This document shows, piece by piece, positions 2,163 to 21,721 of a DNA stretch of 64,000 nucleotides; position 1 is the stretch's first letter; each line of letters opens with the position of its first letter. The notes beneath the pieces are model-generated. The model made no database searches. It was not told the DNA's origin and worked only from the letters and a program-made list of their open reading frames with translations. Made by a program: the position numbers and the translations under genes. Source of the DNA: an uncultured Dehalococcoidia bacterium (lineage in GTDB: Bacteria > Chloroflexota > Dehalococcoidia > UBA2247 > RBG-13-53-26); contig CAYYWI010000003.1 of the NCBI GenBank assembly GCA_964475375.1, forward strand, positions 1,719 through 65,718, in the 5' to 3' direction.

Positions 2163-2669
2163 CTATCCCCTGTCGCCGCCCGTTGATATTGATCCGTCAT
2201 CGTTAAACCTTGGCAGGCTGGCGCCGCACCAGTAGATCACGTTCGCTGCCTTCAAGCCACTCGGCCACCCTCCGCCAAAGACCAGCATTTCCGTTCGATA
2301 CGGTTTTCCCAGGCCATCGATCCCCGACAAGACCAATACTCGGCCGCCCAACTGATTCATTCCATTCTTGAACTTCCTGCCAGGGAGCAGATATGTGTCC
2401 ACGATTTCCGGAGGCTCGGCAGGAACCCCTGCCCATTCACCTGCAGCCCTCCACTGCGGCTCGCACATCCCGGTCGAACTGCCCAGCTTGCAGAGACCAT
2501 CGAGGTCATGTGACTGAGCGTATCCCACTGCACGATTCAGAAGATTTGTGGCCTGTTCAACACTGATTTCGCCGGAACGATTATTGGGCCATGCCCAGGC
2601 AATGACCGCCACTACGGCCGCCAGCAATAGAAAGGCAACTACGATCAGAACAAGTCTTCTTCGTTTCAT
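2163..2669 (-). CDS. hypothetical protein with N-terminal signal-anchor / transmembrane helix
   Basis: MKRRRLVLIVVAFLLLAAVVAVIAWAW hydrophobic N-terminus and no recognisable domain. The start was moved to the internal Met. Confidence 0.5.
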   Translation of the reverse strand: MKRRRLVLIVVAFLLLAAVVAVIAWAWPNNRSGEISVEQATNLLNRAVGYAQSHDLDGLCKLGSSTGMCEPQWRAAGEWAGVPAEPPEIVDTYLLPGRKFKNGMNQLGGRVLVLSGIDGLGKPYRTEMLVFGGGWPSGLKAANVIYWCGASLPRFNDDGSISTGGDRG

Positions 2670-2822
2670 TTTTTGAACTCCTCTGCATATCATGTCCTGT
2701 AGCAGAACACATTGCGGCATCATAACTTATGAGAATATAGCGACAAAACCCATTGCCTGCAACCCCGGCTGTCGATGTATCATACCCACTCGCTCTCAAA
2801 ACACGCTATAATAGTGGGCCAG

Positions 2823-3869
2823 ATGGCTGAGAACAAAGAGGAACGGATAATCTCCGGCAAGCCCAGGGAAGACGATACGGGGCAGGACAAGAGCCTGCGT
2901 CCCAAGCGTCTTTCTGAGTACATTGGACAGGACAAGGTCAAAGAGAACGTCAAGATCGCCATCGAGGCCACCAAAGCCAGGAAGGAAGCGCTCGACCACG
3001 TTCTCATCTACGGACCGCCAGGCCTCGGCAAGACGACCTTGGCGCACATCATCGCCGCAGAATTAGGGTCCAGCATTCGAATCACCTCAGGCCCGGCAAT
3101 CGAGCGTCCCGGTGACCTGGCGGCCATAATCACCAACCTCCACGAAGGCGACCTCCTGTTCATCGACGAGATCCACCGGCTCCCCAGAGTCGTGGAGGAG
3201 GTACTGTACCCCGCGATGGAGGACTTTGCCCTGGACATCGTGATCGGTAAAGGGCCGGGAGCCAAGAGCCTGCGCCTGCACCTGCAGCGCTTCACACTGG
3301 TCGGGGCCACCACGCGGTTCGCCATGCTCAGCTCCCCGCTCAGGGACAGGTTCGGCTCCATCTACCGGCTGGATTTCTACGACCAGCAGGCCATGGAGAC
3401 CATAGTTCAGCGCTCCGCCTCGATCCTGAAGGTGCAGGCCGAGGATGGCGGTGTGAAGGAAATCGCCTGCCGCGCCCGCGGGACACCGAGGGTAGCCAAT
3501 CGACTGCTGCGGCGGGTCAGAGACTATGCCCAGGTCAAGGCCAAGGGCGTGATCACCAAGGCGGTAGCTGTAGATGCGCTGGCCAAGCTGGAAGTGGACA
3601 AGATCGGCCTGGACCAGGTGGACCACCAGGTCTTGCGCACCATCGTGGAGAAGTTCGACGGCGGACCCGTTGGACTGGACACTATCGCCGCATCCATCAG
3701 CGAGGAAGCGGATACCATCATGGACGTCTATGAGCCGTATCTTCTCCAGTTGGGATTCCTGGAGCGGACACCGCGCGGCCGGGTGGCCACACGCCTGGCA
3801 TACGAGCACCTGGGTTTGAAGTACAGGAACAAACAGTCTCCCCAGTCATCTCAAGGACAGCTTCTCTAA
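2823..3869 (+). CDS. ruvB: Holliday junction branch migration DNA helicase RuvB
   Basis: [25 protein letters not shown]...[20 protein letters not shown]...DEIHRL: RuvB Walker A/B and sensor motifs. Confidence 0.95.
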
Positions 3870-3871
3870 TC

Positions 3872-4417
3872 ATGGCTTCTCTGCTTGTACACACCTGCTG
3901 CGGACCCTGCGCCTCCGGATGCTTTGAGCACTGGCGTCAGGAGGGCTTCGAGGTGACCGCATTCTGGTACAACCCCAACATCCATTCCTTCACCGAACAT
4001 CAGAAGAGGCTCCAGACGCTTCAGGATTTTCTCAAGAGGAACAACATCCCCCTCATCATCTCCGAGGGCTACGACGTCATCAACTACTTCCGGGCGGTTG
4101 TCGGCCATGAGCATCAGAACGAACGCTGCCGGTATTGCTTCCGCCTGCGCCTCACGGCCACGGCAGCAGCCGCAAAAGAGCGAGGGTTTGAAGCCTTCAC
4201 CACCACGCTGCTGATCAGCCCTTACCAGAACCAGGAGCTTCTCAAGGAGATCGGCGAAGAGATTGCCGCGAAAGCGGGGCTGCGGTTCATTTCCGAAGAC
4301 ATGAGGCCATGCTACAGCGACAGCCGGAGGATAAGTCAGGAGCTTGACCTCTACCGGCAGAAGTACTGCGGGTGCATCTACAGCGAGTGGGAGCGCTTCA
4401 GCAAGAAGAAACGCTAG
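3872..4417 (+). CDS. queH: epoxyqueuosine reductase QueH (DUF208)
   Basis: N-terminal LLVHTCCGPCAS motif and C-terminal CGCIYSEW motif typical of QueH. Lies 2 nt after ruvB. Confidence 0.8.
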   Translation: MASLLVHTCCGPCASGCFEHWRQEGFEVTAFWYNPNIHSFTEHQKRLQTLQDFLKRNNIPLIISEGYDVINYFRAVVGHEHQNERCRYCFRLRLTATAAAAKERGFEAFTTTLLISPYQNQELLKEIGEEIAAKAGLRFISEDMRPCYSDSRRISQELDLYRQKYCGCIYSEWERFSKKKR

Positions 4418-4439
4418 TTCTTTCATGGCACTCCCGAGC

Positions 4440-4465
4440 CACGAGCTATGAGCTCACAGCTCGTG
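4440..4465. terminator. Bidirectional hairpin CACGAGCT-N10-AGCTCGTG between the convergent queH and TauE genes
   Basis: 8-bp perfect stem seen in sequence, followed by ATTTCT. Its core GAGCTATGAGCTCA resembles the family C modules further down the window. Confidence 0.45.
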
Positions 4466-4469
4466 ATTT

Positions 4470-5276
4470 CTAGAATGCCCCCACCATCCTCAGCCCCACC
4501 ACCAGCATCACGATAACAAAGACTATCCTCAACACCCTGGCTGAGAGACGGTGAGCCGCCCAGGTGCCGACCTGGGTCATGGCGATACTGGTCGGCGTCA
4601 GACAGAGCCAGGCCGTCAGATTGAAGTAGCCCAGAGAGCCGCCCGGCGACCCCGCAACATGCAGGCCGTTGATGAAATAGCCCAGCGCCCCTGCAGCGCT
4701 GGTAAAGACCATCACCGCGGCCGAGGTGGCCACCGCCTGGTGCATCCTGAATCGGAGCACCGTGGTCATCACCGGCACCATCAGGATGCCTCCACCCACA
4801 CCGAGGAGACCGCTGAACATGCCCAGGAAAAAACCGAAGATACCCCAGAAGAGCGGCCTCTCCCTGGGGACTTCATGAGACTCGACCGGCTTTGCCGTCA
4901 GAAGTCGGACACTGGCCAGGATGACCATCACGCCGAAGACGATCTTCATGACCTCGCCGCCGATGACCTGCGTGGTGAGCGTGGAGCCCAGCAGAGCACC
5001 TGCGGCACCGGCGATACCGATCACGATAGCCGCCTTCCACCAGATCATCCCTCTCCGCTGATAGGCAAAAGTGGTCGCTACGGCAGCCGGGAAGATGACC
5101 AGCAGGCTGGTGCCGAAGGCTGTCTTCACTGTGATGTCCACGTCCCAGCCCAGATGACCGAACACCGCCACCATCACCGGAACCATGATGAAAGCGCCGC
5201 CGACACCCAGAAGCCCCTGGCCTAGGCCAACGACGATTCCGGTTACGAGCAAGACGATTATGAGACTCAACTCCAA
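4470..5276 (-). CDS. sulfite exporter TauE/SafE family membrane protein
   Basis: Two TM bundles with a repeated GxGGG motif (GVGGAFIMVP / GVGGGILMVP), characteristic of the TSUP family. Confidence 0.8.
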   Translation of the reverse strand: MELSLIIVLLVTGIVVGLGQGLLGVGGAFIMVPVMVAVFGHLGWDVDITVKTAFGTSLLVIFPAAVATTFAYQRRGMIWWKAAIVIGIAGAAGALLGSTLTTQVIGGEVMKIVFGVMVILASVRLLTAKPVESHEVPRERPLFWGIFGFFLGMFSGLLGVGGGILMVPVMTTVLRFRMHQAVATSAAVMVFTSAAGALGYFINGLHVAGSPGGSLGYFNLTAWLCLTPTSIAMTQVGTWAAHRLSARVLRIVFVIVMLVVGLRMVGAF

Positions 5277-5354
5277 GGGTGACTTCCCTCACTACTCAGT
5301 TCCAGTTATGCAGGCCGGCATTAGCTATCGCGTGTTCATGACCCCAGACTACCT

Positions 5355-5397
5355 GGGGACACCCCAAAACCCCGGCAGGAGATCCCTCCTGCACCTC
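5355..5397. repeat. Family B intergenic element, copy 1 (GGGGACACCCC..CCCCGGCAGG + hairpin + CACCTC)
   Basis: Seen in sequence: GGGGACACCCCAAAACCCCGGC, then hairpin GCAGGAG-ATCC-CTCCTGC, then ACCTC. See the other family B copies. Confidence 0.6.
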
Positions 5398-5543
5398 TCC
5401 AGATAACGCCAACGTAACCCTCCTGGTGCTGATCTGATAGCGTAGCACAAAGCCACAAATATCTGAACCAGAAGGAGACAGGACAGGATCAGAAACGTTG
5501 GTGAAAATGCGAGGGAGGGGAGATGCGCAACTTCTGAGGAGGG

Positions 5544-9632: not shown

Positions 9633-9924
9633 TTATTCGGAGGGCGATCGGCATCAAACTGACCGCCCTATTTGTTCAATCGGCACTGCGAGACCCTACC
9701 AGTAGCGCGTTCCGGCCACGAAGGCTTCGGTACCCTGTTTCTTCAGCTTCCGCAGGTTCTTGACGTTGGCCGTGGATCGGCTTCAGAAAGTCCAGCTTCC
9801 GGCAGGTCTTGAACTCATCGCACTCCCAGCAGCCCTTGATGCCCCGCTTGTTGCAGCAGACTTAGGCAGGACTCGTCTTCAACCGCGTACCTTCCTGTCC
9901 CGAGGACAAAACCCGGTCTCCGTA

Positions 9925-9947
9925 GGGGCGAAGCTGGTGCTTCGCCC
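9925..9947. repeat. Family D variant: GGGGCGAAGC-tggt-GCTTCGCCC hairpin
   Basis: Seen in sequence: a 9-bp stem built from the GGGGCGAAGC half-site shared with the other family D copies. Confidence 0.45.
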
Positions 9948-10055
9948 TCGGGAGGCACCATCCTTCGGCCCGGTGGTAACATGGCGTTGTCTCCAGGCTC
10001 TGCCGTTCACCCCCTTCATCCCCCCACTGGGGATGGAGATAAGAGGGGAATCTGA

Positions 10056-10093
10056 GGGACACCCCCAGACCCCCGGCAGCGTTCCGCTGCACC
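10056..10093. repeat. Family B intergenic element, copy 2
   Basis: GGGACACCCCCAGACCCCCGGC followed by hairpin GCAGCG-TTC-CGCTGC then ACCG. The hairpin sequence differs from the other copies but stays complementary. Confidence 0.6.
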
Positions 10094-10226
10094 GTTATGC
10101 CACTCCATCTTCCTCGATGGCAGGGGACAGAGAGGTGAGGCGCAGCCCCCAAGCCCCGTCCGTTGGGAAAAGAGAAGGGGCCATGCTTTCGCGTGGCCCC
10201 TTGAAGCAACGAGTTTGATTCTCGAG

Positions 10227-11232: not shown

Positions 11233-11400
11233 TTAAGTCGTTATCCTCTCTGAACCACTTTCCTCGGTTGGTGTCTGTCCTTCAGCCTCTGCAGGTTCCG
11301 GCACGTCAGCACAGGTAAGCTGGTCGAGGATCTTCTCGGCCTCTGCCGAGCCAGGCGCTCCGCTAGCCTTCATCCTGGCTATCAACTGATCGATTTGCAT
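11233..11400 (-). CDS. small hypothetical ORF (55 aa) between etfB and etfA
   Basis: ATG..TAA frame MQIDQLIARMKASGAPGSAEAEKILDQLTCADVPEPAEAEGQTPTEESGSERITT, read by hand on the minus strand; too short to appear in the ORF track. It fills the 235-nt etfB-etfA gap. No known domain. Confidence 0.25.
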   Translation of the reverse strand: MQIDQLIARMKASGAPGSAEAEKILDQLTCADVPEPAEAEGQTPTEESGSERITT

Positions 11401-11457
11401 TCCGCACGGCATTCCTGTAAGTCTCCTGCCCTCGACGCTTTCTGCCGACTCCTCTTC

Positions 11458-12261: not shown

Positions 12262-12418
12262 AAACGACGTCCTCCTTTAGGTGGTCGATACAAATAGAGA
12301 TTTGTGTACAACAAACCAACCTAAAATTTAGCATTCAGCGTTGTTTACTGTCAAACAGACGCTGTGAGATACCCAAGACATGCTATGCAGTTTCAGCGGC
12401 TTAGACTTGCCGAGGCGG

Positions 12419-12745
12419 CTACCTGCGCACTGGAGAGGGAGCGAACAGGCCAACCAGAGCGCCCACAGAAGCCGAGCCCAAAGCTACCAATACCTCGGGG
12501 GTAGCTTTGTCTATGGCCACAAGCACAACAGAGCCAATGGCCGCAACCAGCGCCAGGATGCCGAGCACACAGACGGCGATACGGTAGAGCATCAAGTCAT
12601 CGGTCCAGGGCTGGGTATTCTCCTTGGCTTCATCTCGTATCTTCTCAAGCACGGGAATAGGGTCTGCCTTCATCTTGTCCACCAACTCCTTGTCCGCCTT
12701 GAGGAGTCTTACCATTTCATCTGCTGAACGTGTTTCTGGTTTCAT
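12419..12745 (-). CDS. small hypothetical membrane protein
   Basis: Charged N-terminal helix followed by a C-terminal TM segment (IAVCVLGILALVAAIGSVVLVAI). ATG at 12745 preferred over TTG at 12757 because of SD spacing. Confidence 0.5.
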   Translation of the reverse strand: MKPETRSADEMVRLLKADKELVDKMKADPIPVLEKIRDEAKENTQPWTDDLMLYRIAVCVLGILALVAAIGSVVLVAIDKATPEVLVALGSASVGALVGLFAPSPVRR

Positions 12746-12835
12746 TCTTCGGTCCAACCTCTTTCTTTGAATCTTTGCTGATTCTGCTTCCAGAGGACCT
12801 GCACCTTTGTGGCAAAGACATAAGCTTATTCTCGA

Positions 12836-15800
12836 CTAGATGGATTTACCACGACTGCGGTTCTGCAAGAGATCCCAGATATCGGAGGGAATGCCGATGC
12901 GTCGGTGGATAATCATATCACGAAGGAAAGTGGCATCACCCGGAGAGAGATTTATCGTCCAGACTTTCAATTTCTCCTCATTGGAGATCAAGCTCATGCG
13001 GATGCAGTTCAACTTATAGCGGTCATGACGATAGGTGGTGAGCAAGTCGCCAATCTCGTCTGCTGACATCGCCAGCAACCGGGATTGTGGATACTCGGGG
13101 TCCGGTGTCGGAGGTTTGTAGGAATCCCCGTGAATCGACTTCATCAGCGCTTGCCACGATTCTTCGGGCAGATGCAGCCTCGATCTCCGTATAGCCGGCA
13201 CCAGCCCGATGATGTTGTAGGGGGCAATGTTATGCAGACGAGCCTCGAAGGTCGGCAAGTCCAGCCGACCCCAGGTTCTCTCCAGCAAGGTACGGGCATC
13301 TTCTTTGTGATTCATTCGGCAAAGGCACATGAGCAGCACTCCCTGATCGTTCGGTGACGACTCAAACAGCGTGGCGACGAATAGCTCTCGATGCAGTAGA
13401 TCGGCGATCGCATTTTGGAGTTCCTTGTTCAGGCCCGCTCCGCCCAGATAGTCCAGGAAGGTGACCAGGCGGTTTGGCGGCATGCGCGCCAGCCGATCAT
13501 TGAATTCCACCATTGCCAGGAGGCGGCGAACGATGCCTGCACCAGCGAGTTCCCCGTTGCTCGCCTTGATCTGCCTGATGTCCAGATACTTCAGAAAGTT
13601 GACCACCACTTCACCCGCCGGGGAACGTGCCAGTGTTTGTGCGAACTGGTCGAGCGCCAGCAGGTGGTGAACGATGCCCGTGCTGACCAACTCTCCGTTG
13701 TCTGCCTTGATCTGCCTGATGTCCAGATACTTCAGGAAGTTGACCACGGAGAGCAGCGGCGTACGCGCCAGCGCTTGTGTGAACTGGTCGAGCGCCAGCA
13801 GGTGGCGAACGATGCCCGTGCTGATGAACTCTCCATTGTCTGCTTTGATCTGCCTGATATCCAAGTACCTCAGGAAGTTGACCACCTCCCCCGCCGGGGA
13901 ACGTGCCAGTGCTTGTACGAACTGGTCAAGTGCCAGCAGGCGGTGAACGATGCCCGTGCTGACAAGCTCTCCGTTGCCCGCCTTGATCTGCCTGCTGTCC
14001 AGATACTTCAGGAAGTTGGCCACCGCTGCCGCCGGTGAATGCGCCAGCGTCTGCGCGAACTGGTCGAGCGCCAGCAGGTGGTGAACAATGCCTGTGCTGA
14101 CAAGCTCTCCATTGTCCGCCTTGATTTGCTTGCCGTCCAGATACCTCAGGAAGTCCGCCACGTAGTTCGGCGGTACACGTACCAGATTGTTGAGAAGCAC
14201 AATGTAACCCGTGCCTGATTGCAGGGCGCACAGGCGCTGCCAGCTCCAAGGTATATCCCCTCTCTTGAGACTTCTTGCCGTATGGGGCGGCGCATTGCAC
14301 AGCGCGCGCTCCACAAGGCCATCTTCGTTCATCACTGCCTGAGACCATTGATCATGGCTCATCAGCTCGTTGTAGTCACCGGAAGCCAGACGGTAGTTCA
14401 CCAATCCCACCATGAATGGATAGCGTCGGCAGACTGCGAGGACGTGGCTGAGCCACAGACTGCTGAACTGCCGGTCATCAAAGCCACTCTGAGCTTGCAG
14501 TATGAGCTCTCCCAGGCTGGGATGGAACAACCGACAGTAGAGTCTCGGGCTGTTGCCTCGTATAGGAGCCCGCAGCACCGTGCCATTGGCGGTGAACTCG
14601 GGGAGGAGGGTTTCGATGCTCTGGCCCCAGATGGCGTTGTCCTCCGCATCCAGATCCAGGCTGCCAAGAACGCAGAGCTCGGAGAAGCATTTCCTTTGCC
14701 CCGGTGCTCTGTCCGCCGGTATCAGATAGCGCTGCTGCACCATGGACGTGATTGAACTGCGGCTCAGTGTCCCCGGGTTCCTGGGGTCAAAGGCGGTAGC
14801 GAATACCGCCAAGTCCCCACCACACTGTTTGACCCAACGGCGAGCCGAACCCGAGGCCACTTCACGATCTATCCCAAGGCGTTGGGTAAGCCTTCGGGCT
14901 ACGCATCGGAAGGCCTCCTCGGTCGCCCTCAGTTCCGTTATCTTGAGGGACTCCTCGTCGTAGAGACTGTTTCGATCAGTCACTCTGTGTTCGGAAAGAC
15001 GTCCAAGCAGCAACACATGTACCTGCATCCCTTGAGCACGGAGCGCTTGAGTGCGCTTCAGCAGGCGATGTGCCAGTTGCTGGTCGATATGCACATTGTC
15101 AAGGATCAGTAGCAGCGGCTGCTGCGTGGTGCGGACGAACCACTCGATGTCGCTGCGGGCATTTTCGAACGATTGAGCGCCGTGGAGATCGAGTTCCTTC
15201 AGATCCAGGAAGAGGCTCCGGCCATTCATCTCTGCCGCCCATTCAAATGCTACGGCCAAACCAAAGACGGTTTTGCCGCAGCCGCGTGCGCCTCTGACCC
15301 ACACATCGTTTGAAGCTTTGAGCAGAGAGAGCACCTCCTCGCGCTCGGTCTTCGGCAAGTAGACCTTGCGACCGGCAAACTCCTCGTACGAGGGGCTATG
15401 GGCGTTTCTGCCACCCATGCTAGCCCGAACCCAATCGGACAGGTCGGTTAAGATATGCAGTCCCGGCAGCCGTTCAGCGTGTTGGCACTCTCGCAGGAAC
15501 ATGCTCTGATCTTTCTGCTGCCACTCGGTGCCCGTCCATTCACAGACCATGCCGGTGTGGGGTCTGACGGGCAGATTCGGTCCTGCGCTTTTGATCACAT
15601 CCTCCGCTGGAGGCAGTGAGAAACACAGCAGCCATTCCCCTCGAGCAGAAAGCCGGAGGCGTTGAGCATAGTGTCCGAGGGATGGTGCATCTCTCACCAT
15701 TTCCCCGGTGCTTGGATCTTTGAGAACGGAAGCCAAAGTCCTCTCCCAAAGGCCCAATGCCGGGAGTTCGCTCTTGAACGGGCAGGTCACCAGCCAGCTG

Positions 15801-16708
15801 TGCCCGGCCTGCACCGCTTTGCTCTCCACATTGATATGAGCCACATTCGGGCTGACCACCCTCATCGTCTGTGTCTCAACCTGGGCATGGTGATACAGAT
15901 CCACGACAGCGCGCTGGAAGTTGTAATCGAGCGGTTCGTTATTGCATTGAGGGAGCAGTAGATAGTGAATCCCCCCATGCCCGGCTCGGGCATCCTGCAG
16001 CAGGTCGCTGATGAAGAGGCTCTTTCCTCCAGGTTGGGCGATCAGGTCGTAGCAAATGCTGGTCATGACATTGTGATCACCGATCTGGAGCACGTAGGTG
16101 AATCGGCCTTGCAGAAACCTCCCGCGACCCGGCTGTCGCTCCAATGGGTATGGATACCGCTTGGGTTGGAAGAAATACTGACCCGGAGCATCCGGCATGG
16201 CTGGATTGCAGGCCAGCAGGACAGCGACATTGACGAACGCGGTCGATTCCGATGCCGGGGGGACGAGGGCGAAAAGGCGCTGGCAGCCATCCGGTCCGGT
16301 GAGAGACCGATCGCCCGAAGCCAGGTTCTTGTTGTTGGACAGATCATCTCTCAACAGTTTCCTGAAGCGCGAAAAGCGGAGATACTCAACAGGGAGGCAG
16401 ATCAGACATGCTCCGGTTTCTGCAGGACGCGCGCGGACAAGCCCCCAGGCAAGCTCCATCAATTCCGGAAGCGAATCGGCCGGCACTGATATCTCCGGCA
16501 GCACGACTATGTTGGCCCAATGATCACGGATGGCGGTCGTCAATGCCTTGGAAAGCTTCATTGTGTGGGCGGATACGTCAGACAGACAGGATGGAGCACC
16601 GTCAGGTCCTCGCGCCGTCAGTGACACCGCAACCTGGACAGCCGCAACCCTGTGTTCTTCAGAGGGGAAGCTGCAGTTTTCGATTCTAAAGGCCGCAAGG
16701 CTGCTCAT
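12836..16708 (-). CDS. giant multidomain protein: N-terminal C-N hydrolase (nitrilase-superfamily) domain + central STAND/NLR-like P-loop NTPase + C-terminal 43-aa tandem repeats
   Basis: The N-terminal domain carries the nitrilase E-K-C triad pattern (VAAVQVAV; IVVLPEI; QPKRYPYPLE; TSICYDLIAQPG). A Walker A (VWVRGARGCGKTV) and Walker B (LLLILDNVH) follow. Then come 5 near-identical repeats of the form VNFLKYLDIRQIKADNGELVSTGIVHHLLALDQFAQTLARSPAGEV. Confidence 0.8.
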   Translation of the reverse strand: MSSLAAFRIENCSFPSEEHRVAAVQVAVSLTARGPDGAPSCLSDVSAHTMKLSKALTTAIRDHWANIVVLPEISVPADSLPELMELAWGLVRARPAETGACLICLPVEYLRFSRFRKLLRDDLSNNKNLASGDRSLTGPDGCQRLFALVPPASESTAFVNVAVLLACNPAMPDAPGQYFFQPKRYPYPLERQPGRGRFLQGRFTYVLQIGDHNVMTSICYDLIAQPGGKSLFISDLLQDARAGHGGIHYLLLPQCNNEPLDYNFQRAVVDLYHHAQVETQTMRVVSPNVAHINVESKAVQAGHSWLVTCPFKSELPALGLWERTLASVLKDPSTGEMVRDAPSLGHYAQRLRLSARGEWLLCFSLPPAEDVIKSAGPNLPVRPHTGMVCEWTGTEWQQKDQSMFLRECQHAERLPGLHILTDLSDWVRASMGGRNAHSPSYEEFAGRKVYLPKTEREEVLSLLKASNDVWVRGARGCGKTVFGLAVAFEWAAEMNGRSLFLDLKELDLHGAQSFENARSDIEWFVRTTQQPLLLILDNVHIDQQLAHRLLKRTQALRAQGMQVHVLLLGRLSEHRVTDRNSLYDEESLKITELRATEEAFRCVARRLTQRLGIDREVASGSARRWVKQCGGDLAVFATAFDPRNPGTLSRSSITSMVQQRYLIPADRAPGQRKCFSELCVLGSLDLDAEDNAIWGQSIETLLPEFTANGTVLRAPIRGNSPRLYCRLFHPSLGELILQAQSGFDDRQFSSLWLSHVLAVCRRYPFMVGLVNYRLASGDYNELMSHDQWSQAVMNEDGLVERALCNAPPHTARSLKRGDIPWSWQRLCALQSGTGYIVLLNNLVRVPPNYVADFLRYLDGKQIKADNGELVSTGIVHHLLALDQFAQTLAHSPAAAVANFLKYLDSRQIKAGNGELVSTGIVHRLLALDQFVQALARSPAGEVVNFLRYLDIRQIKADNGEFISTGIVRHLLALDQFTQALARTPLLSVVNFLKYLDIRQIKADNGELVSTGIVHHLLALDQFAQTLARSPAGEVVVNFLKYLDIRQIKASNGELAGAGIVRRLLAMVEFNDRLARMPPNRLVTFLDYLGGAGLNKELQNAIADLLHRELFVATLFESSPNDQGVLLMCLCRMNHKEDARTLLERTWGRLDLPTFEARLHNIAPYNIIGLVPAIRRSRLHLPEESWQALMKSIHGDSYKPPTPDPEYPQSRLLAMSADEIGDLLTTYRHDRYKLNCIRMSLISNEEKLKVWTINLSPGDATFLRDMIIHRRIGIPSDIWDLLQNRSRGKSI
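13542..14190. repeat. Five tandem, near-identical 129-bp repeats inside the giant CDS (encode the 43-aa repeats)
   Basis: Period 129 nt; units start about 13542, 13671, 13801, 13930 and 14059. The core GATGCCCGTGCTGAC..CTTGATCTGCCTGATGTCCAGATACTTCAGGAAGTTGACCAC is conserved across units. Confidence 0.85.
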
Positions 16709-16958
16709 TCCGGGATACCAACTGCTATAACGTCCAAGCTCTTGATTGACCGAGACTTGGCTTTCAATATCAGGCTATACATTGCTATGCGCATCCTACG
16801 ATATCGTCTACGAGGAAGTCAAATAATGACCGATCAAACCGGTTGCGCCGTCATTGCAGTGATCCCTGGTTCGGCCTACCCGGGAGTCACCAACCCTATA
16901 AATTGAACACCCAACGTGGGGTATGCCATAATAGAAAGTCATCCGGAGGATTGGGCTA

Positions 16959-19302: not shown

Positions 19303-20546
19303 CGGCCAAAGCACCGGCTTCGCTGCTGAAGCGGGGTGTAGCAGAGATCATAATTGAGCAGGAAATGTTGAAGCTCCTGGAGTCCGGTAAGCCGCTGCGG
19401 CTGAAGCAGGGATTCGATCCCAGCCGTCCCGATATCCACCTCGGACATGTGGTGGGCTTGAGGAAACTGCGCCAGTTCCAGGAAATGGGCCACCAGGTCG
19501 TGCTCATCGTCGGCGACTGGACGGCCCAGATCGGCGACCCCAGCGGCCAGTCGCTCACCCGGCCCATGCTGACTGCCGAAGAGGTCAAGCGCAATGCCGA
19601 AAGCTATCTGCTGCAGTTCTTCAAGGTGGTGGACAAGGACAAGACCGAGGTCAGGTTGCAAAGCGAGTGGTTCGGGAAGTTCAACCTGGCCGACATCATC
19701 AGGCTGACCAGCAAGTTCACCGTGGCCCAGTTCCTGGCCCGCGAAGATTTTGCCAAGCGCTATGCCGGTGGCCAGCCCATCGCCATCACTGAGCTTCTGT
19801 ACCCGCTGCTCCAGGCATATGACTCGGTAGCCATCAACTCCGACGTGGAGTTCGGAGGCATCGACCAGAAGTTCAACTGTCTGGTGGGGCGGGAGCTGCA
19901 GGGCATGATGGGGCAACGCCAGCAGCAGGTGTTCCTGATGCCGCTGCTGGTGGGCACGGACGGCGTGCAGAAGATGAGCAAGAGCCTTGGCAACTATATT
20001 GCGGTTGATGAGCCGCCGTATGGCATGTACGGCAAGGTGATGTCTGTACCGGACAACCTGATCATGCTTTACTTCGAGCTTCTGACCGACATTCCTGACA
20101 AAGAGCTGGCGGAAATGAAGCAACAGCTTGACGCCCAGTCAGTGAACCCCATGGACTTGAAGAAGCGTCTGGCTTTGGACATCGTGACCCAGTTCCACGG
20201 TGCCGTTGAAGCGCGTAAGGGAGGAGAGCGCTTCGCCAGGGAGGTGCAGAAAAAGGAGCTTCCTGACGATATGCCCGAGCGGAACGTCAAGGTGGCCGTC
20301 AAGGGCACCCCTGATTCTCAAACCGGACTGGTGCTGGTTTCTATGCCCGCACTGCTCGTAGAGACGCATATGGTAGCCGGCACAGGTGAGGCCAGAAGGC
20401 TCATCGCTCAGGGTGCGGTGGAAATTGACGGCGAGAAAGTTGCCGACAACGACTGGAAAGTCGCCTCCGGCATGGTAGTGAAAGTTGGAAAACGACGGTT
20501 TTGTCGTATAATGGTAGACATGAACGCTGGCAGTGGTAAAGTCTGA
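19299..20546 (+). CDS. tyrS: tyrosine--tRNA ligase
   Basis: Class I HIGH (PDIHLGH) and KMSKS motifs plus a C-terminal S4-like domain. Overlaps ribF by 4 nt. Confidence 0.92.
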   Translation: MTAKAPASLLKRGVAEIIIEQEMLKLLESGKPLRLKQGFDPSRPDIHLGHVVGLRKLRQFQEMGHQVVLIVGDWTAQIGDPSGQSLTRPMLTAEEVKRNAESYLLQFFKVVDKDKTEVRLQSEWFGKFNLADIIRLTSKFTVAQFLAREDFAKRYAGGQPIAITELLYPLLQAYDSVAINSDVEFGGIDQKFNCLVGRELQGMMGQRQQQVFLMPLLVGTDGVQKMSKSLGNYIAVDEPPYGMYGKVMSVPDNLIMLYFELLTDIPDKELAEMKQQLDAQSVNPMDLKKRLALDIVTQFHGAVEARKGGERFAREVQKKELPDDMPERNVKVAVKGTPDSQTGLVLVSMPALLVETHMVAGTGEARRLIAQGAVEIDGEKVADNDWKVASGMVVKVGKRRFCRIMVDMNAGSGKV

Positions 20547-20588
20547 ACCCGATATGGCCGGTCTTCTACAGTCCGACTGGAAGAGAAG

Positions 20589-20611
20589 GCAGGCCAAAGG
20601 CCTGCTTTTTT
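20589..20611 (+). terminator. Rho-independent terminator after tyrS (GCAGGCC-AAA-GGCCTGC + TTTTTT)
   Basis: Seen in sequence: 7-bp GC stem, 3-nt loop, then a 6-T run. Confidence 0.6.
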
Positions 20612-20638
20612 GTATTCTGTTAAAGATGGAGGCATAGG

Positions 20639-21721
20639 ATGCAACTACGTATTCCGGGGCCCACACCTTGCCCGGAGGAAGTGCTCCAGGCGCAATCCAG
20701 GCAGATGATCAACCACCGTGGAAAGGAATTCAGCGTCATCATCCGCAAGGTAACTGGGCAACTGAAGCGCTGTTTCCAGACCAAGGGTGATGTTCTGATT
20801 CTGACGGGCTCCGGTACGGGCGGCATGGAAGCCGCCGTCGTCAATACCCTTTCTCCCGGCGACAAAGTGCTCTGCGTCTCCATCGGTGCCTTCGGCGACC
20901 GTTTTGCCGATATCGCCAGAACCTATGGCGCTGAGACCAGGATGCTCTCCTTTGACTGGGGGACTGCGGCTGATCCGGATGCCGTACGAAACGCTCTGAA
21001 GGCCGATGCCGCTATCAAGGCCGTGATGGTAACCCATAACGAGACCTCCACCGGCGTCACTAACGACATCAAATCGATCGCCAAGGTTGCCAAGGATTTC
21101 GACAAGCTGCTTCTGGTTGACGGCGTCAGCAGCGTCGGCTCCATCGACATTCAGGTGGACGACTGGCAGTGCGATGTTGTAGTCACCGGCTCTCAGAAGG
21201 GCTGGATGACCCCGCCCGGCATGGCCATGGTGAGCATGAGCCAGAGGGCCTGGCAGGCATATGACAAGGCCAAGATGCCGAAGGTGTACTGGGACCTGGG
21301 CCGCGCCAGGAAGATCTTCGATGAGAAGGGACAGACGCCCTGGACTCCGGCAGTCTCGACGCTGTATGCCCTGGAGGTCGGCCTTGACCTGATCGAGAAA
21401 GAGGGGCTGCAGAATGTGTTTGCCCGTCATGCGAAGGTTGCCAAGGCAGCAAGAGAGGGAGCCAAGTCGCTGGGGTTGACTCTGTTCCCCAAGGAGTCCC
21501 ACGCCTCCAACACCGTGACGGCCATCAACTCGCCGCAGGGTGTCGATGCCAAGAAGCTTTTGCAGATTCTGCGGGAAGAGTACGGCGTGGTGCTGTCCGG
21601 CGGTCAACAGAAGCTGGAAGGGAAGATATTCCGTATCGGACACCTGGGCTGGGTCAACGAAGCTGATATGACCGAGGTTATCGCAGCCTTGAAAAAGGCG
21701 CTGCCTCGGGCGAAAGCCTGA
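20639..21721 (+). CDS. class V aminotransferase (serine-pyruvate / phosphoserine aminotransferase type)
   Basis: SQKGWMTPPG PLP-lysine region. Lies next to serA, as with archaeal-type SerC. Confidence 0.8.
   Translation: MQLRIPGPTPCPEEVLQAQSRQMINHRGKEFSVIIRKVTGQLKRCFQTKGDVLILTGSGTGGMEAAVVNTLSPGDKVLCVSIGAFGDRFADIARTYGAETRMLSFDWGTAADPDAVRNALKADAAIKAVMVTHNETSTGVTNDIKSIAKVAKDFDKLLLVDGVSSVGSIDIQVDDWQCDVVVTGSQKGWMTPPGMAMVSMSQRAWQAYDKAKMPKVYWDLGRARKIFDEKGQTPWTPAVSTLYALEVGLDLIEKEGLQNVFARHAKVAKAAREGAKSLGLTLFPKESHASNTVTAINSPQGVDAKKLLQILREEYGVVLSGGQQKLEGKIFRIGHLGWVNEADMTEVIAALKKALPRAKA

Follow-up and report, generated by a model that had tools for sequence, protein, structure and literature searches.

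The inserted cassette and its genes

In the window, the 64000-nucleotide stretch of DNA analysed here, a single open reading frame on the minus strand (positions 12836–16708) encodes a protein of 1290 residues, in which a nitrilase-like domain, a STAND-like P-loop NTPase and an array of 46-residue repeats follow one another in one polypeptide. The first-pass annotation had proposed both this frame and the effector–NTPase–repeat layout, and both were borne out; the motifs that it listed were all in place, with VAAVQ at residue 21, IVVLPEI at 67, QPKRY at 181, SICYDL at 217, GARGCGKT at 473 and LLLILDNVH at 532. The gene lies in a cassette of 4545 bp (positions 12357–16901, no strand assigned). 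Blastn comparison with the syntenic relatives L011 and L010 showed the same break in both: the homologous sequence ends at 12356 and picks up again at 16902. L011 has an empty slot (152 bp), L010 has an Mrr restriction nuclease in it and L012 has the same cassette, with identical boundaries. The gene is thus accessory, as had been supposed, inserted at a chromosomal slot whose content varies, and it is horizontally acquired. No flanking repeats were found at the cassette edges. A promoter-like site (TTGACT-18-TAGGAT; positions 16793–16822, minus strand) lies inside the insert ~85 nt upstream of the start codon, and promoter-like sites abut both edges, although four sites against 2.0 expected make the consensus scan weak evidence. 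The cassette fills the spacer between the predicted divergent promoters of etfB and the chorismate mutase gene; in this uncultured Chloroflexota lineage the locus appears to be a small slot for cargo, delimited precisely by these two housekeeping promoters.

A second gene in the same insert, 78 nt downstream (positions 12419–12757, minus strand), encodes a 112-residue protein with two predicted TM (transmembrane) helices (hydrophobic residues 52–70 and 87–105), for which no Pfam or PADLOC match was obtained. Beyond the window it was found only in L012 (97% EF-G) and was absent beside the distant homologues. The co-directional arrangement with this small protein and etfB/etfA had been described correctly, as had the housekeeping character of the flanks (EF-G, chorismate mutase, DAHP synthase, ribF and tyrS).

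The family of the 1290-residue protein is very rare and patchy. Nine homologous protein clusters were obtained among 5.8 billion proteins, and relatives were present in three of 185579 species representatives (from Chloroflexota, Planctomycetota and Ca. Argoarchaeum) and at three metagenome loci; none was found on viral contigs. Most homologue loci lie among housekeeping genes, outside recognisable defence islands, and the lack of conserved neighbours at these loci points to a single-gene system. One homologue sits beside an Hhe-type defence helicase, and a transposase and a MazG-like gene are among the neighbours at some loci.

The nitrilase-like domain and its relatives

Residues 18–310 (positions 15779–16657, minus strand) form the proposed effector. 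In the predicted model they have the alpha-beta-beta-alpha sandwich by which the nitrilase superfamily is recognised, and alignment located the Glu-Lys-Cys triad together with the second glutamate residue. Pro71, Glu72, Asn160, Lys183, Glu190, Cys219 and Pro259 were invariant in alignment A4 (33 sequences, identity down to 17%). The predicted catalytic residues, all encoded on the minus strand, are Glu72 of the VVLPE motif (positions 16493–16495) and Lys183 of the QPK motif (16160–16162), with the second glutamate, Glu190, seven residues past the lysine (16139–16141), the three codons being confirmed; the predicted nucleophile is Cys219 of the SICYD motif (16052–16054), which was invariant in alignments A1 and A2 as well. 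Against solved nitrilase-superfamily enzymes, the glutamate segment aligned with the FPE motif and the cysteine segment with the ICxD motif found in the glutaminase domain of NAD+ synthetase, and the model places Cys219 at a strand–helix junction (strand 212–216, helix 219–223). The mean pLDDT of this domain was 73, the AF2 models of the protein having been built from nine sequences only. The Pfam CN_hydrolase profile, which the first-pass annotation had put forward as a check, gave no match to the protein even at E≤1 and none at E≤0.01 among ten relatives; predicted structure and remote homology, not a standard profile, are the grounds for the nitrilase assignment. On this basis, residues 18–310 are predicted to adopt a nitrilase-superfamily fold with an invariant Glu-Lys-Glu-Cys active site and to be catalytic. 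The C-N hydrolase domain annotated at the N-terminus therefore stands with respect to its E/K/C motifs and fold, but not to its extent of ~400 residues, since the core covers about residues 18–310 and residues 311–425 (positions 15434–15778, minus strand) are a separate strand-rich extension or linker. This extension contains many invariant residues, has low to medium pLDDT and is limited to the family of the 1290-residue protein and a few relatives. Identity to Nit2/omega-amidase, Nta1 and the aliphatic amidases was only 12–19%, and Pfam PF00795 is blind to the domain. Compared with the nitrilase/C-N hydrolase enzymes, it adds a helical insertion (about residues 112–150) as well as the 115-residue extension and, unlike them, sits within a 1290-residue signalling protein.

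The domain matched the PADLOC LmuA model PDLC03850 with an E-value of 1.3e-8 (residues 159–310 against profile positions 142–304), and its relatives matched LmuA with values down to 2.6e-31. Downstream of an LmuA-like relative used as a control (P0053) lies an SMC-type LmuB gene; no SMC-like LmuB or LmuC was found beside the window gene or at the homologue loci examined. DefenseFinder lists an 'amidase' class of LmuA effector. The window protein resembles Lamassu LmuA in having a homologous N-terminal effector domain with the same invariant catalytic residues, but the match ends at position 304 of the 604-position profile and the protein is without the C-terminal region of LmuA. Relatives of the domain also matched the PADLOC RT_UG5-nitrilase (about 1e-5) and CARF_nitrilase models. 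Fusions of the domain to Walker-A NTPases, NB-ARC+TPR and NACHT+HEAT types among them, were present in about 26 cluster representatives, and hsdM lies 40 nt from one such fusion gene.

A nitrilase-superfamily domain is likewise the toxic anti-phage output of the RT-nitrilase systems (DRT1/UG1, UG5-large/DRT11 and Rst_RT-nitrilase-Tm). In DRT1 the nitrilase is the effector, its activity needs oligomerisation, and the output is gated by oligomeric state (PMC13275509). The same structural study, from 2026, gave the nitrilase substrate as unknown and remarked on how few precedents there are for nitrilases in defence (PMC13275509). UG5-large RT-nitrilase systems often have a small TM protein alongside (PMC13436386, PMC9122126), and a gene for a small TM protein is also present in the window cassette. 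By analogy, the 112-residue protein may be an accessory component, but no such TM partner is conserved in the family of the window protein. A further difference is that the window nitrilase domain is N-terminal and its controller is a STAND NTPase; the Pfam and PADLOC results contained no reverse-transcriptase domain beyond a 23-residue match of the RTasNitrilase model to the window protein (E 0.035). Nitrilase-type defence effectors are already known, namely those of DRT1 and the UG5 RT-nitrilases and the PADLOC LmuA model that matches the window domain. The suggestion that a nitrilase effector would be new here was thus right only in part: we found no description of a nitrilase–STAND fusion in the literature, but such effectors exist in defence systems, as do the NB-ARC/TPR and NACHT/HEAT fusions.

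The NTPase module and the repeat array

The P-loop nucleotide-binding domain (residues 450–610; positions 14879–15361, minus strand) was identified by sub-threshold Pfam matches, hhalign and a model with pLDDT of about 90. Its Walker A motif GARGCGKT (residues 473–480; positions 15269–15292, minus strand) has invariant Gly473, Gly478, Lys479 and Thr480, and its Walker B motif LLLILDNVH (residues 532–540; positions 15089–15115, minus strand) has invariant Asp537 and Asn538; the codons of both motifs were confirmed. The invariant Walker B pair, Asp-Asn, lacks a second acidic residue, so the protein may hydrolyse ATP weakly. Structural alignments, secondary structure and invariant residues divided residues 611–840 (positions 14189–14878, minus strand) into a helical, a winged-helix-like and a second helical domain. 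Two invariant motifs are found there, CGGDL (residues 629–633, with invariant Gly630, Asp632 and Leu633) and LFHPSLGE (residues 727–734, with invariant Leu727, Phe728, His729 and Ser731), and a beta-hairpin is predicted at residues 711–727. Both occur where the helical-domain and winged-helix signatures of STAND proteins would be expected, and the former may correspond to the GLPL motif of NB-ARC and the latter to the FxHxSxxE motif of NACHT proteins.

Sub-threshold Pfam matches were obtained to AAA_14, nSTAND_NTPase5 (6.7e-4), nSTAND3, NPHP3_N and NACHT (0.069), with NPHP3_N and nSTAND3 sub-threshold in four of the nine members, and no curated STAND profile (NACHT, NB-ARC or nSTAND) was above threshold in Pfam. 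Hhalign matched the domain to NTPases from NB-ARC-type relatives with a probability of 96.9% and gave no significant match to a single NACHT protein. In the structural comparison recommended in the first-pass annotation, the predicted structure of residues 426–1290 was closest to SAMD9, an archaeal STAND-TPR protein, Avs4 and Avs5, and in two independent structural methods STAND proteins were both the top matches and the only ones to align over more than 300 residues. The proposed STAND-type NTPase was thus supported by its Walker motifs and structural matches, but STAND, NACHT and NB-ARC profiles remained below threshold. A search with PADLOC defence models, likewise recommended, did not find the expected relationship, as residues 426–1290 of all nine members gave nothing except PDC-S01 at 8e-4 in one of them, and no named Avs family (Avs1–5) or other PADLOC defence NTPase was matched. 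Taken together, residues 450–840 are predicted to combine a P-loop NTPase domain and helical and winged-helix-like domains in one module, whose nearest structural matches are STAND proteins. SAMD9, Avs5, Avs6 and Avs9 have been reported as one structural group (PMC12680541). The window protein has the layout of Avs4, Avs5/AVAST type 5 and SAMD9, in which one gene encodes an enzymatic effector at the N-terminus, a P-loop NTPase plus helical and winged-helix domains in the centre, and a sensor of helical repeats at the C-terminus. In contrast, the Avs effectors are SIR2, nuclease, PNP or protease domains where the window protein has a nitrilase-superfamily hydrolase, and its sensor is a homogeneous array of 41–46-residue ARM-like repeats, unlike those of Avs and SAMD9.

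This array, the proposed sensor (residues 841–1130; positions 13319–14188, minus strand), was located by TRF, by anchor positions and in the model. TRF reported a period of 138 nt at positions 13562–14154 (4.3 copies, 82% matches), and the anchors lie at residues 853, 899, 945, 991, 1038 and 1084, giving five clear copies and a degenerate one. Five almost identical 43-residue repeats had been annotated; the period is in fact 46 residues and the copies are 70–80% identical, copies 1–4 having 32–37 of 46 residues in common; identity falls to about 55% in the fifth copy, and the sixth is degenerate. Each unit consists of three helices in the predicted model. Copy number varied from three to about 11 among homologues, repeats were more similar within a protein than between proteins, and every copy in the window protein carries a 5-residue insertion; between two near-identical proteins (96% identity) the differences were not concentrated in the repeats. 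Residues 841–1130 are thus a solenoid of three-helix repeats, and the number of copies has turned over separately from lineage to lineage. The protein ends in a predicted helical domain (residues 1131–1290; positions 12839–13318, minus strand), which is conserved in the family (alignment A1) with PDxEYPQ and YKLNC motifs.

Proposed function and competing explanations

Overall, the first-pass annotation was accurate on the reading frame, motifs and gene context and erred on the repeat period, the repeat identity and the extent of the nitrilase-like domain. Its interpretation as a STAND-like effector–NTPase–sensor protein was supported, and none of the three outcomes that it had named as contrary (no alignable triad, no NTPase fold, or homologues that are core metabolic genes) was observed. 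The evidence supports the 1290-residue protein as a variant of the Avs/NLR-like kind, with a putative function and substrate. Its combination of a nitrilase-type hydrolase, an NLR-like ATPase switch and fast-evolving repeats makes a single-protein antiviral sensor with an unusual warhead the most likely identity, and we consider it probable that a single-chain, Avs-type intracellular immune sensor is carried on this small mobile cassette. At rest, the protein would be a closed, nucleotide-bound monomer. Binding of a phage protein or other invader-derived protein by the repeat solenoid and C-terminal domain would free the NTPase module to oligomerise, and the N-terminal domains thus gathered would be switched on for hydrolysis, since nitrilase-superfamily enzymes generally need homo-oligomeric interfaces. 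The enzyme would then hydrolyse a protein amide or some essential metabolite with an amide or nitrile group, and growth arrest or cell death would abort the infection. More tentatively, the N-terminal domain could belong to a defence-dedicated nitrilase clade, missed by Pfam, that has repeatedly been plugged into Lamassu LmuA and into NB-ARC/TPR, NACHT/HEAT and SAMD9/Avs5-like STAND controllers, an oligomerisation-gated amidase that might kill via one essential amide-bearing molecule.

A conflict or cell-suicide module aimed at something other than phage would fit the architecture and accessory status equally well. It could serve plasmid or mobile-element exclusion or kin discrimination, or be one of the programmed-cell-death NLRs that are enriched in multicellular-type bacteria, and its trigger would be a signal of cellular stress or a different mobile element rather than a virion protein. 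The hosts (Chloroflexota, Planctomycetota and a consortium-forming archaeon), the absence of the family from viral contigs, and the transposase and MazG-like gene near some loci are in keeping with such a module. However, the characterised proteins closest in NTPase structure (Avs4, Avs5 and SAMD9) are antiviral, Lamassu carries the same effector domain and a relative has a restriction nuclease in the same chromosomal slot, and we regard this explanation as unlikely.

Many bacterial STANDs are regulators, metabolic genes surround many of the loci and etfBA adjoins the window gene, which together could suggest a ligand-gated amidase that senses a metabolite or protein state for host physiology, analogous to MalT-like regulators or to the Nta1-like N-terminal amidases of protein turnover. 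Such a role is quite improbable given that a syntenic close relative with otherwise identical flanks lacks the gene, that the distribution is extremely sparse and cross-domain, that Pfam detected no DNA-binding output domain, that conserved metabolic neighbours are absent at the homologue loci, and that the effector clade is common to Lamassu and DRT-type nitrilases. The domain assignments themselves might mislead, the nitrilase-like domain being a non-catalytic oligomerisation scaffold and the NTPase a generic AAA+ or ORC-Cdc6-type ATPase, as the failure of Pfam CN_hydrolase and STAND profiles to match above threshold and the non-significant hhalign result with the single NACHT protein would allow. 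An invariant Glu-Lys-Glu-Cys set at 17–50% identity is hard to explain without catalysis, though, STAND proteins top both structural methods with the sole alignments over 300 residues, and effector, NTPase and repeats together are the STAND layout; we therefore give this reading very little weight.

Nitrilase domains are among the least understood anti-phage outputs. That a related catalytic domain with a conserved active site is wired to STAND/NLR switches as well as to Lamassu suggests a general immune warhead rather than a peculiarity of RT systems, and induced proximity of an enzyme active only as an oligomer would explain how it is switched on. A single-gene, ligand-triggered version offers a handy route to the substrate via metabolomics. 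If the N-terminal domain does belong to a defence-dedicated nitrilase clade, then, since a STAND switch is cleanly triggerable, its family could reveal the substrate of the DRT1 and UG5 nitrilases, and an oligomerisation-gated amidase would represent a new immune-effector chemistry, which the member in an ethane-oxidising archaeon would extend to archaeal immunity.

The giant gene and its chromosomal slot

The open reading frame of the giant protein lies at 12836..16708 on the minus strand and encodes 1290 amino acids, exactly as called in the first-pass annotation, and the motifs quoted there were all found (at aa 21, 67, 181, 217, 473 and 532). The true start codon is somewhat uncertain, because the annotated start of P0087, a 96%-identical orthologue, lies 9 codons farther upstream (L012 12383; MDVIAVGLG...), whereas the equivalent stretch of the window (16708-16740) is in another frame and is closed by a TGA that overlaps the ATG. 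Base composition along the gene showed no sharp anomaly, and an Rfam scan of the window gave zero matches.

The host was assigned to Chloroflexota from its EF-G, whose relatives of named source are all Chloroflexota or Dehalococcoidia. Syntenic contigs of relatives were located via their EF-G. In L011 (EF-G 83% identical) the slot is empty, and chorismate mutase, DAHP synthase, ribF and tyrS come straight after etfA-etfB. In L010 (EF-G 88%), the same slot (19335-21307) contains a DUF2196 gene, a 178-aa ORF with no Pfam match and a Mrr_N/Mrr_cat restriction-type nuclease, and in L012 (EF-G 97%) it contains, like the window, the small 2-TM gene together with an orthologue of 1298 aa. The comparison of close relatives proposed in the first-pass annotation revealed one empty slot and one with other cargo. 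By blastn, homology to both L011 and L010 breaks off at window 12356 and returns at 16902, so the cassette spans 12357-16901, a length of 4545 bp compared with 152 bp at the empty site. A promoter-like site abuts each edge of the insert, TTGACA-18-TAAATT (12354-12325) on the etfB side and TTGAAC-18-CATAAT (16903-16932) on the chorismate-mutase side, and no terminal direct or inverted repeats were found at the edges. That the giant gene is a core metabolic gene tied to etfBA was rejected, as homology to relatives and the promoter-like site of etfB both start directly beyond the insert edge.

A second variable slot was observed in the EF-G/etfA gap (window 9633-10226). L012 has DUF3795 and AlkZ-like genes at this position, L010 has additionally a DUF4268 gene and a N6_N4_Mtase+Mrr_cat gene, and the window retains homology over only ~230 nt (as far as 9862), with no convincing gene. 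Between etfB and etfA, a 59-aa ORF is present at window 11233-11412 (minus strand); genes of 50-61 aa are called at its position in L010, L011 and L012, and the ORF may encode a genuine micro-protein that is conserved in the etf operon.

The N-terminal nitrilase-like domain and its relatives

The proposal that the N-terminal domain belongs to the nitrilase superfamily held for the catalytic residues, although not for detection by Pfam: a scan of the full window protein gave no CN_hydrolase match even at E<=1, and an NCBIfam scan gave nothing relevant. PADLOC matched aa 159-310 significantly to the LmuA model PDLC03850 (E 1.3e-8), together with a faint match of the protein to an RT-associated nitrilase model. 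An exhaustive search with the N-domain profile HMM, covering 1.84 billion cluster representatives, yielded 83 proteins at E<=1e-3. In a broadened alignment of 33 diverse N-domains (17-50% identity to the window protein), seven residues were invariant, P71, E72, N160, K183, E190, C219 and P259, among them the catalytic Glu, Lys and Cys of nitrilases along with their second glutamate. The spacing of the catalytic residues is one that we take to be typical of amidases, and in the predicted model E72 and K183 are each at a strand end with C219 at a strand-helix junction. Sequence-profile searches of the PDB with the family N-domain and C-part profiles gave nothing useful. The broadened N-domain profile gave weak matches (E 0.016-2), 14 of 17 being nitrilase-superfamily proteins, in which the FPE and ICxD segments lined up with the catalytic Glu and Cys segments. 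Because of the invariant residues, their positions in the model and these PDB matches, the domain is placed in the nitrilase superfamily as a divergent member, and it is very probably competent for catalysis.

Relatives of ~600 aa matched the PADLOC LmuA model strongly (down to 2.6e-31). A SMC_N/AAA_23 gene of 1202 aa follows and overlaps that of one such relative, P0053, giving the LmuA-LmuB arrangement of Lamassu. Several relatives also matched the PADLOC RT_UG5-nitrilase (~1e-5) and CARF_nitrilase models. A Walker A motif was present at ~aa 400-515 in ~26 representatives of 900-1300 aa, and Pfam detected NB-ARC together with TPR in P0021 and P0029 and, in P0025, NACHT together with HEAT. 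Counting these NB-ARC/TPR and NACHT/HEAT fusions, the nitrilase-like effector clade has been joined to STAND-type NTPases at least three times independently, the window protein being one such fusion. A further nitrilase-like, NB-ARC-like NTPase and TPR fusion, P0018 (contig JGI 3300047160, genes 956-2452 and 2492-5530), starts 40 nt 3' of the type I restriction-modification gene hsdM.

The STAND-like NTPase and the repeat array

The predicted model of the minus-strand-encoded aa 426-1290 was confident (mean pLDDT 85.7). It contains a five-stranded P-loop core and then a helical domain, a helix-rich, winged-helix-like domain with a beta-hairpin and further helices after it, a regular solenoid of three helices per 46-aa unit, and a helical domain at the C-terminal end. 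The first-pass annotation had assigned the middle part to the STAND NTPases, and profile searches did detect P-loop matches in Pfam (AAA_14, nSTAND_NTPase5, nSTAND3, NPHP3_N and NACHT), but all were sub-threshold. Local hhalign to the NTPases of NB-ARC-type relatives gave a probability of 96.9% for the P-loop core alone, hhalign of the C-part with one NACHT-HEAT relative was not significant, and PADLOC contains no model for the middle and C-terminal part. Sequence-level support for the STAND part is weaker than that from the predicted structure. The Walker B pair is Asp-Asn in every family member, and the motifs CGGDL (aa 629-633) and LFHPSLGE (aa 727-734) are invariant in the family alignment. 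These two motifs lie where the GLPL-like motif and the conserved histidine of STANDs would be expected, and may be their equivalents.

The C-terminal repeats had been described as near-identical units of 43 aa. The tandem array was confirmed, but its period is 46 aa (138 nt) and copies 1-4 have 32-37 of 46 residues in common, with the fifth copy sharing about half and the sixth degenerate. TRF gave 4.3 copies of the 138-nt period with 82% matches at 13562-14154, and the repeats are anchored in the protein at aa 853, 899, 945, 991, 1038 and 1084. The period is 41 aa in all eight homologues compared with 46 aa in the window protein. Every window copy (13319-14188) has the same 5-aa insertion, so the insertion preceded the amplification, and a single modified unit gave rise to the whole array anew. 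The family has 3 to about 11 copies, and the mean repeat identity is higher within a protein (0.35-0.82) than between proteins (0.25-0.37). Lineage-specific repeat turnover is also seen in NLR sensor arrays. Differences between the window protein and P0087 were not concentrated in the repeats, with no diversifying excess there.

Distribution and comparison with known defence systems

The family comprises nine clusters among 5.8 billion proteins. Of 185,579 species representatives, three have a relative: two MAGs, one from Chloroflexota and one from Planctomycetota, and the archaeon Candidatus Argoarchaeum ethanivorans. Three loci were found in 241 million metagenome records, and a search of viral contigs gave zero relatives. 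The neighbours of the giant gene differ at every homologue locus, and no conserved partner genes were found in six homologue loci, nor in L015 and L008. At L005 (784-6339) and L006 (150-5681), a 1851-aa DUF4011/AAA_11/AAA_12/DUF3320 helicase is encoded two genes upstream of the homologue P0005. In PADLOC this helicase matches the models Hhe (5e-169) and PDC-S37 (E=0), so that homologue and helicase form a small defence cluster. Another homologue has Transposase_31 and MazG-like genes beside it. In the Planctomycetota MAG, a 1195-aa TPR protein (L008 91-3678) is encoded upstream of the homologue, with a weak, below-threshold match (E 9e-6) to a PIN-TPR-GreABC conflict-system domain.

The interpretation of the first-pass annotation, an effector-NTPase-sensor protein, was supported, and a candidate Avs/NLR-like immune sensor is the best-fitting reading of the giant protein because of its conserved nitrilase active site, STAND-like switch and turnover-prone repeats, its place as an accessory gene in a slot occupied by a restriction nuclease in a relative, its patchy cross-domain distribution, its single-gene organization and the homology of its effector to a Lamassu effector. 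Enzymes of the nitrilase superfamily generally require assembly into homo-oligomers to be active, a requirement exploited by DRT1 (PMC13275509), so that STAND oligomerization upon ligand binding would supply the proximity of nitrilase domains required for activity. In this predicted mode of action the protein resembles an Avs, but it belongs to none of the named Avs families checked. It has an effector in common with one LmuA type, although the system itself is not Lamassu, and effector chemistry in common with the RT-nitrilase DRTs, whereas it has no RT.

Nitrilases are uncommon in defence according to the DRT1 study (PMC13275509), and in the literature searched the word 'nitrilase' is absent from the main texts of the principal STAND/NLR defence surveys, although the supplementary tables of the 2026 survey may list such fusions. 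Public sequence data already contain nitrilase-STAND fusions, and a specialist would not be astonished by a STAND scaffold with yet another effector. That one nitrilase clade links Lamassu with DRT-type and NLR-type systems is worth following, and a clean single-gene switch offers a prospective route to the nitrilase substrate.

The small 2-TM gene of the cassette is an uncertain component of the system. It was absent beside distant homologues and, because it is present only beside the copy of the near-identical relative, we do not take it as defining. A TM protein often accompanies UG5-large RT-nitrilases (PMC13436386, PMC9122126), and the 2-TM gene is a suggestive parallel to it.
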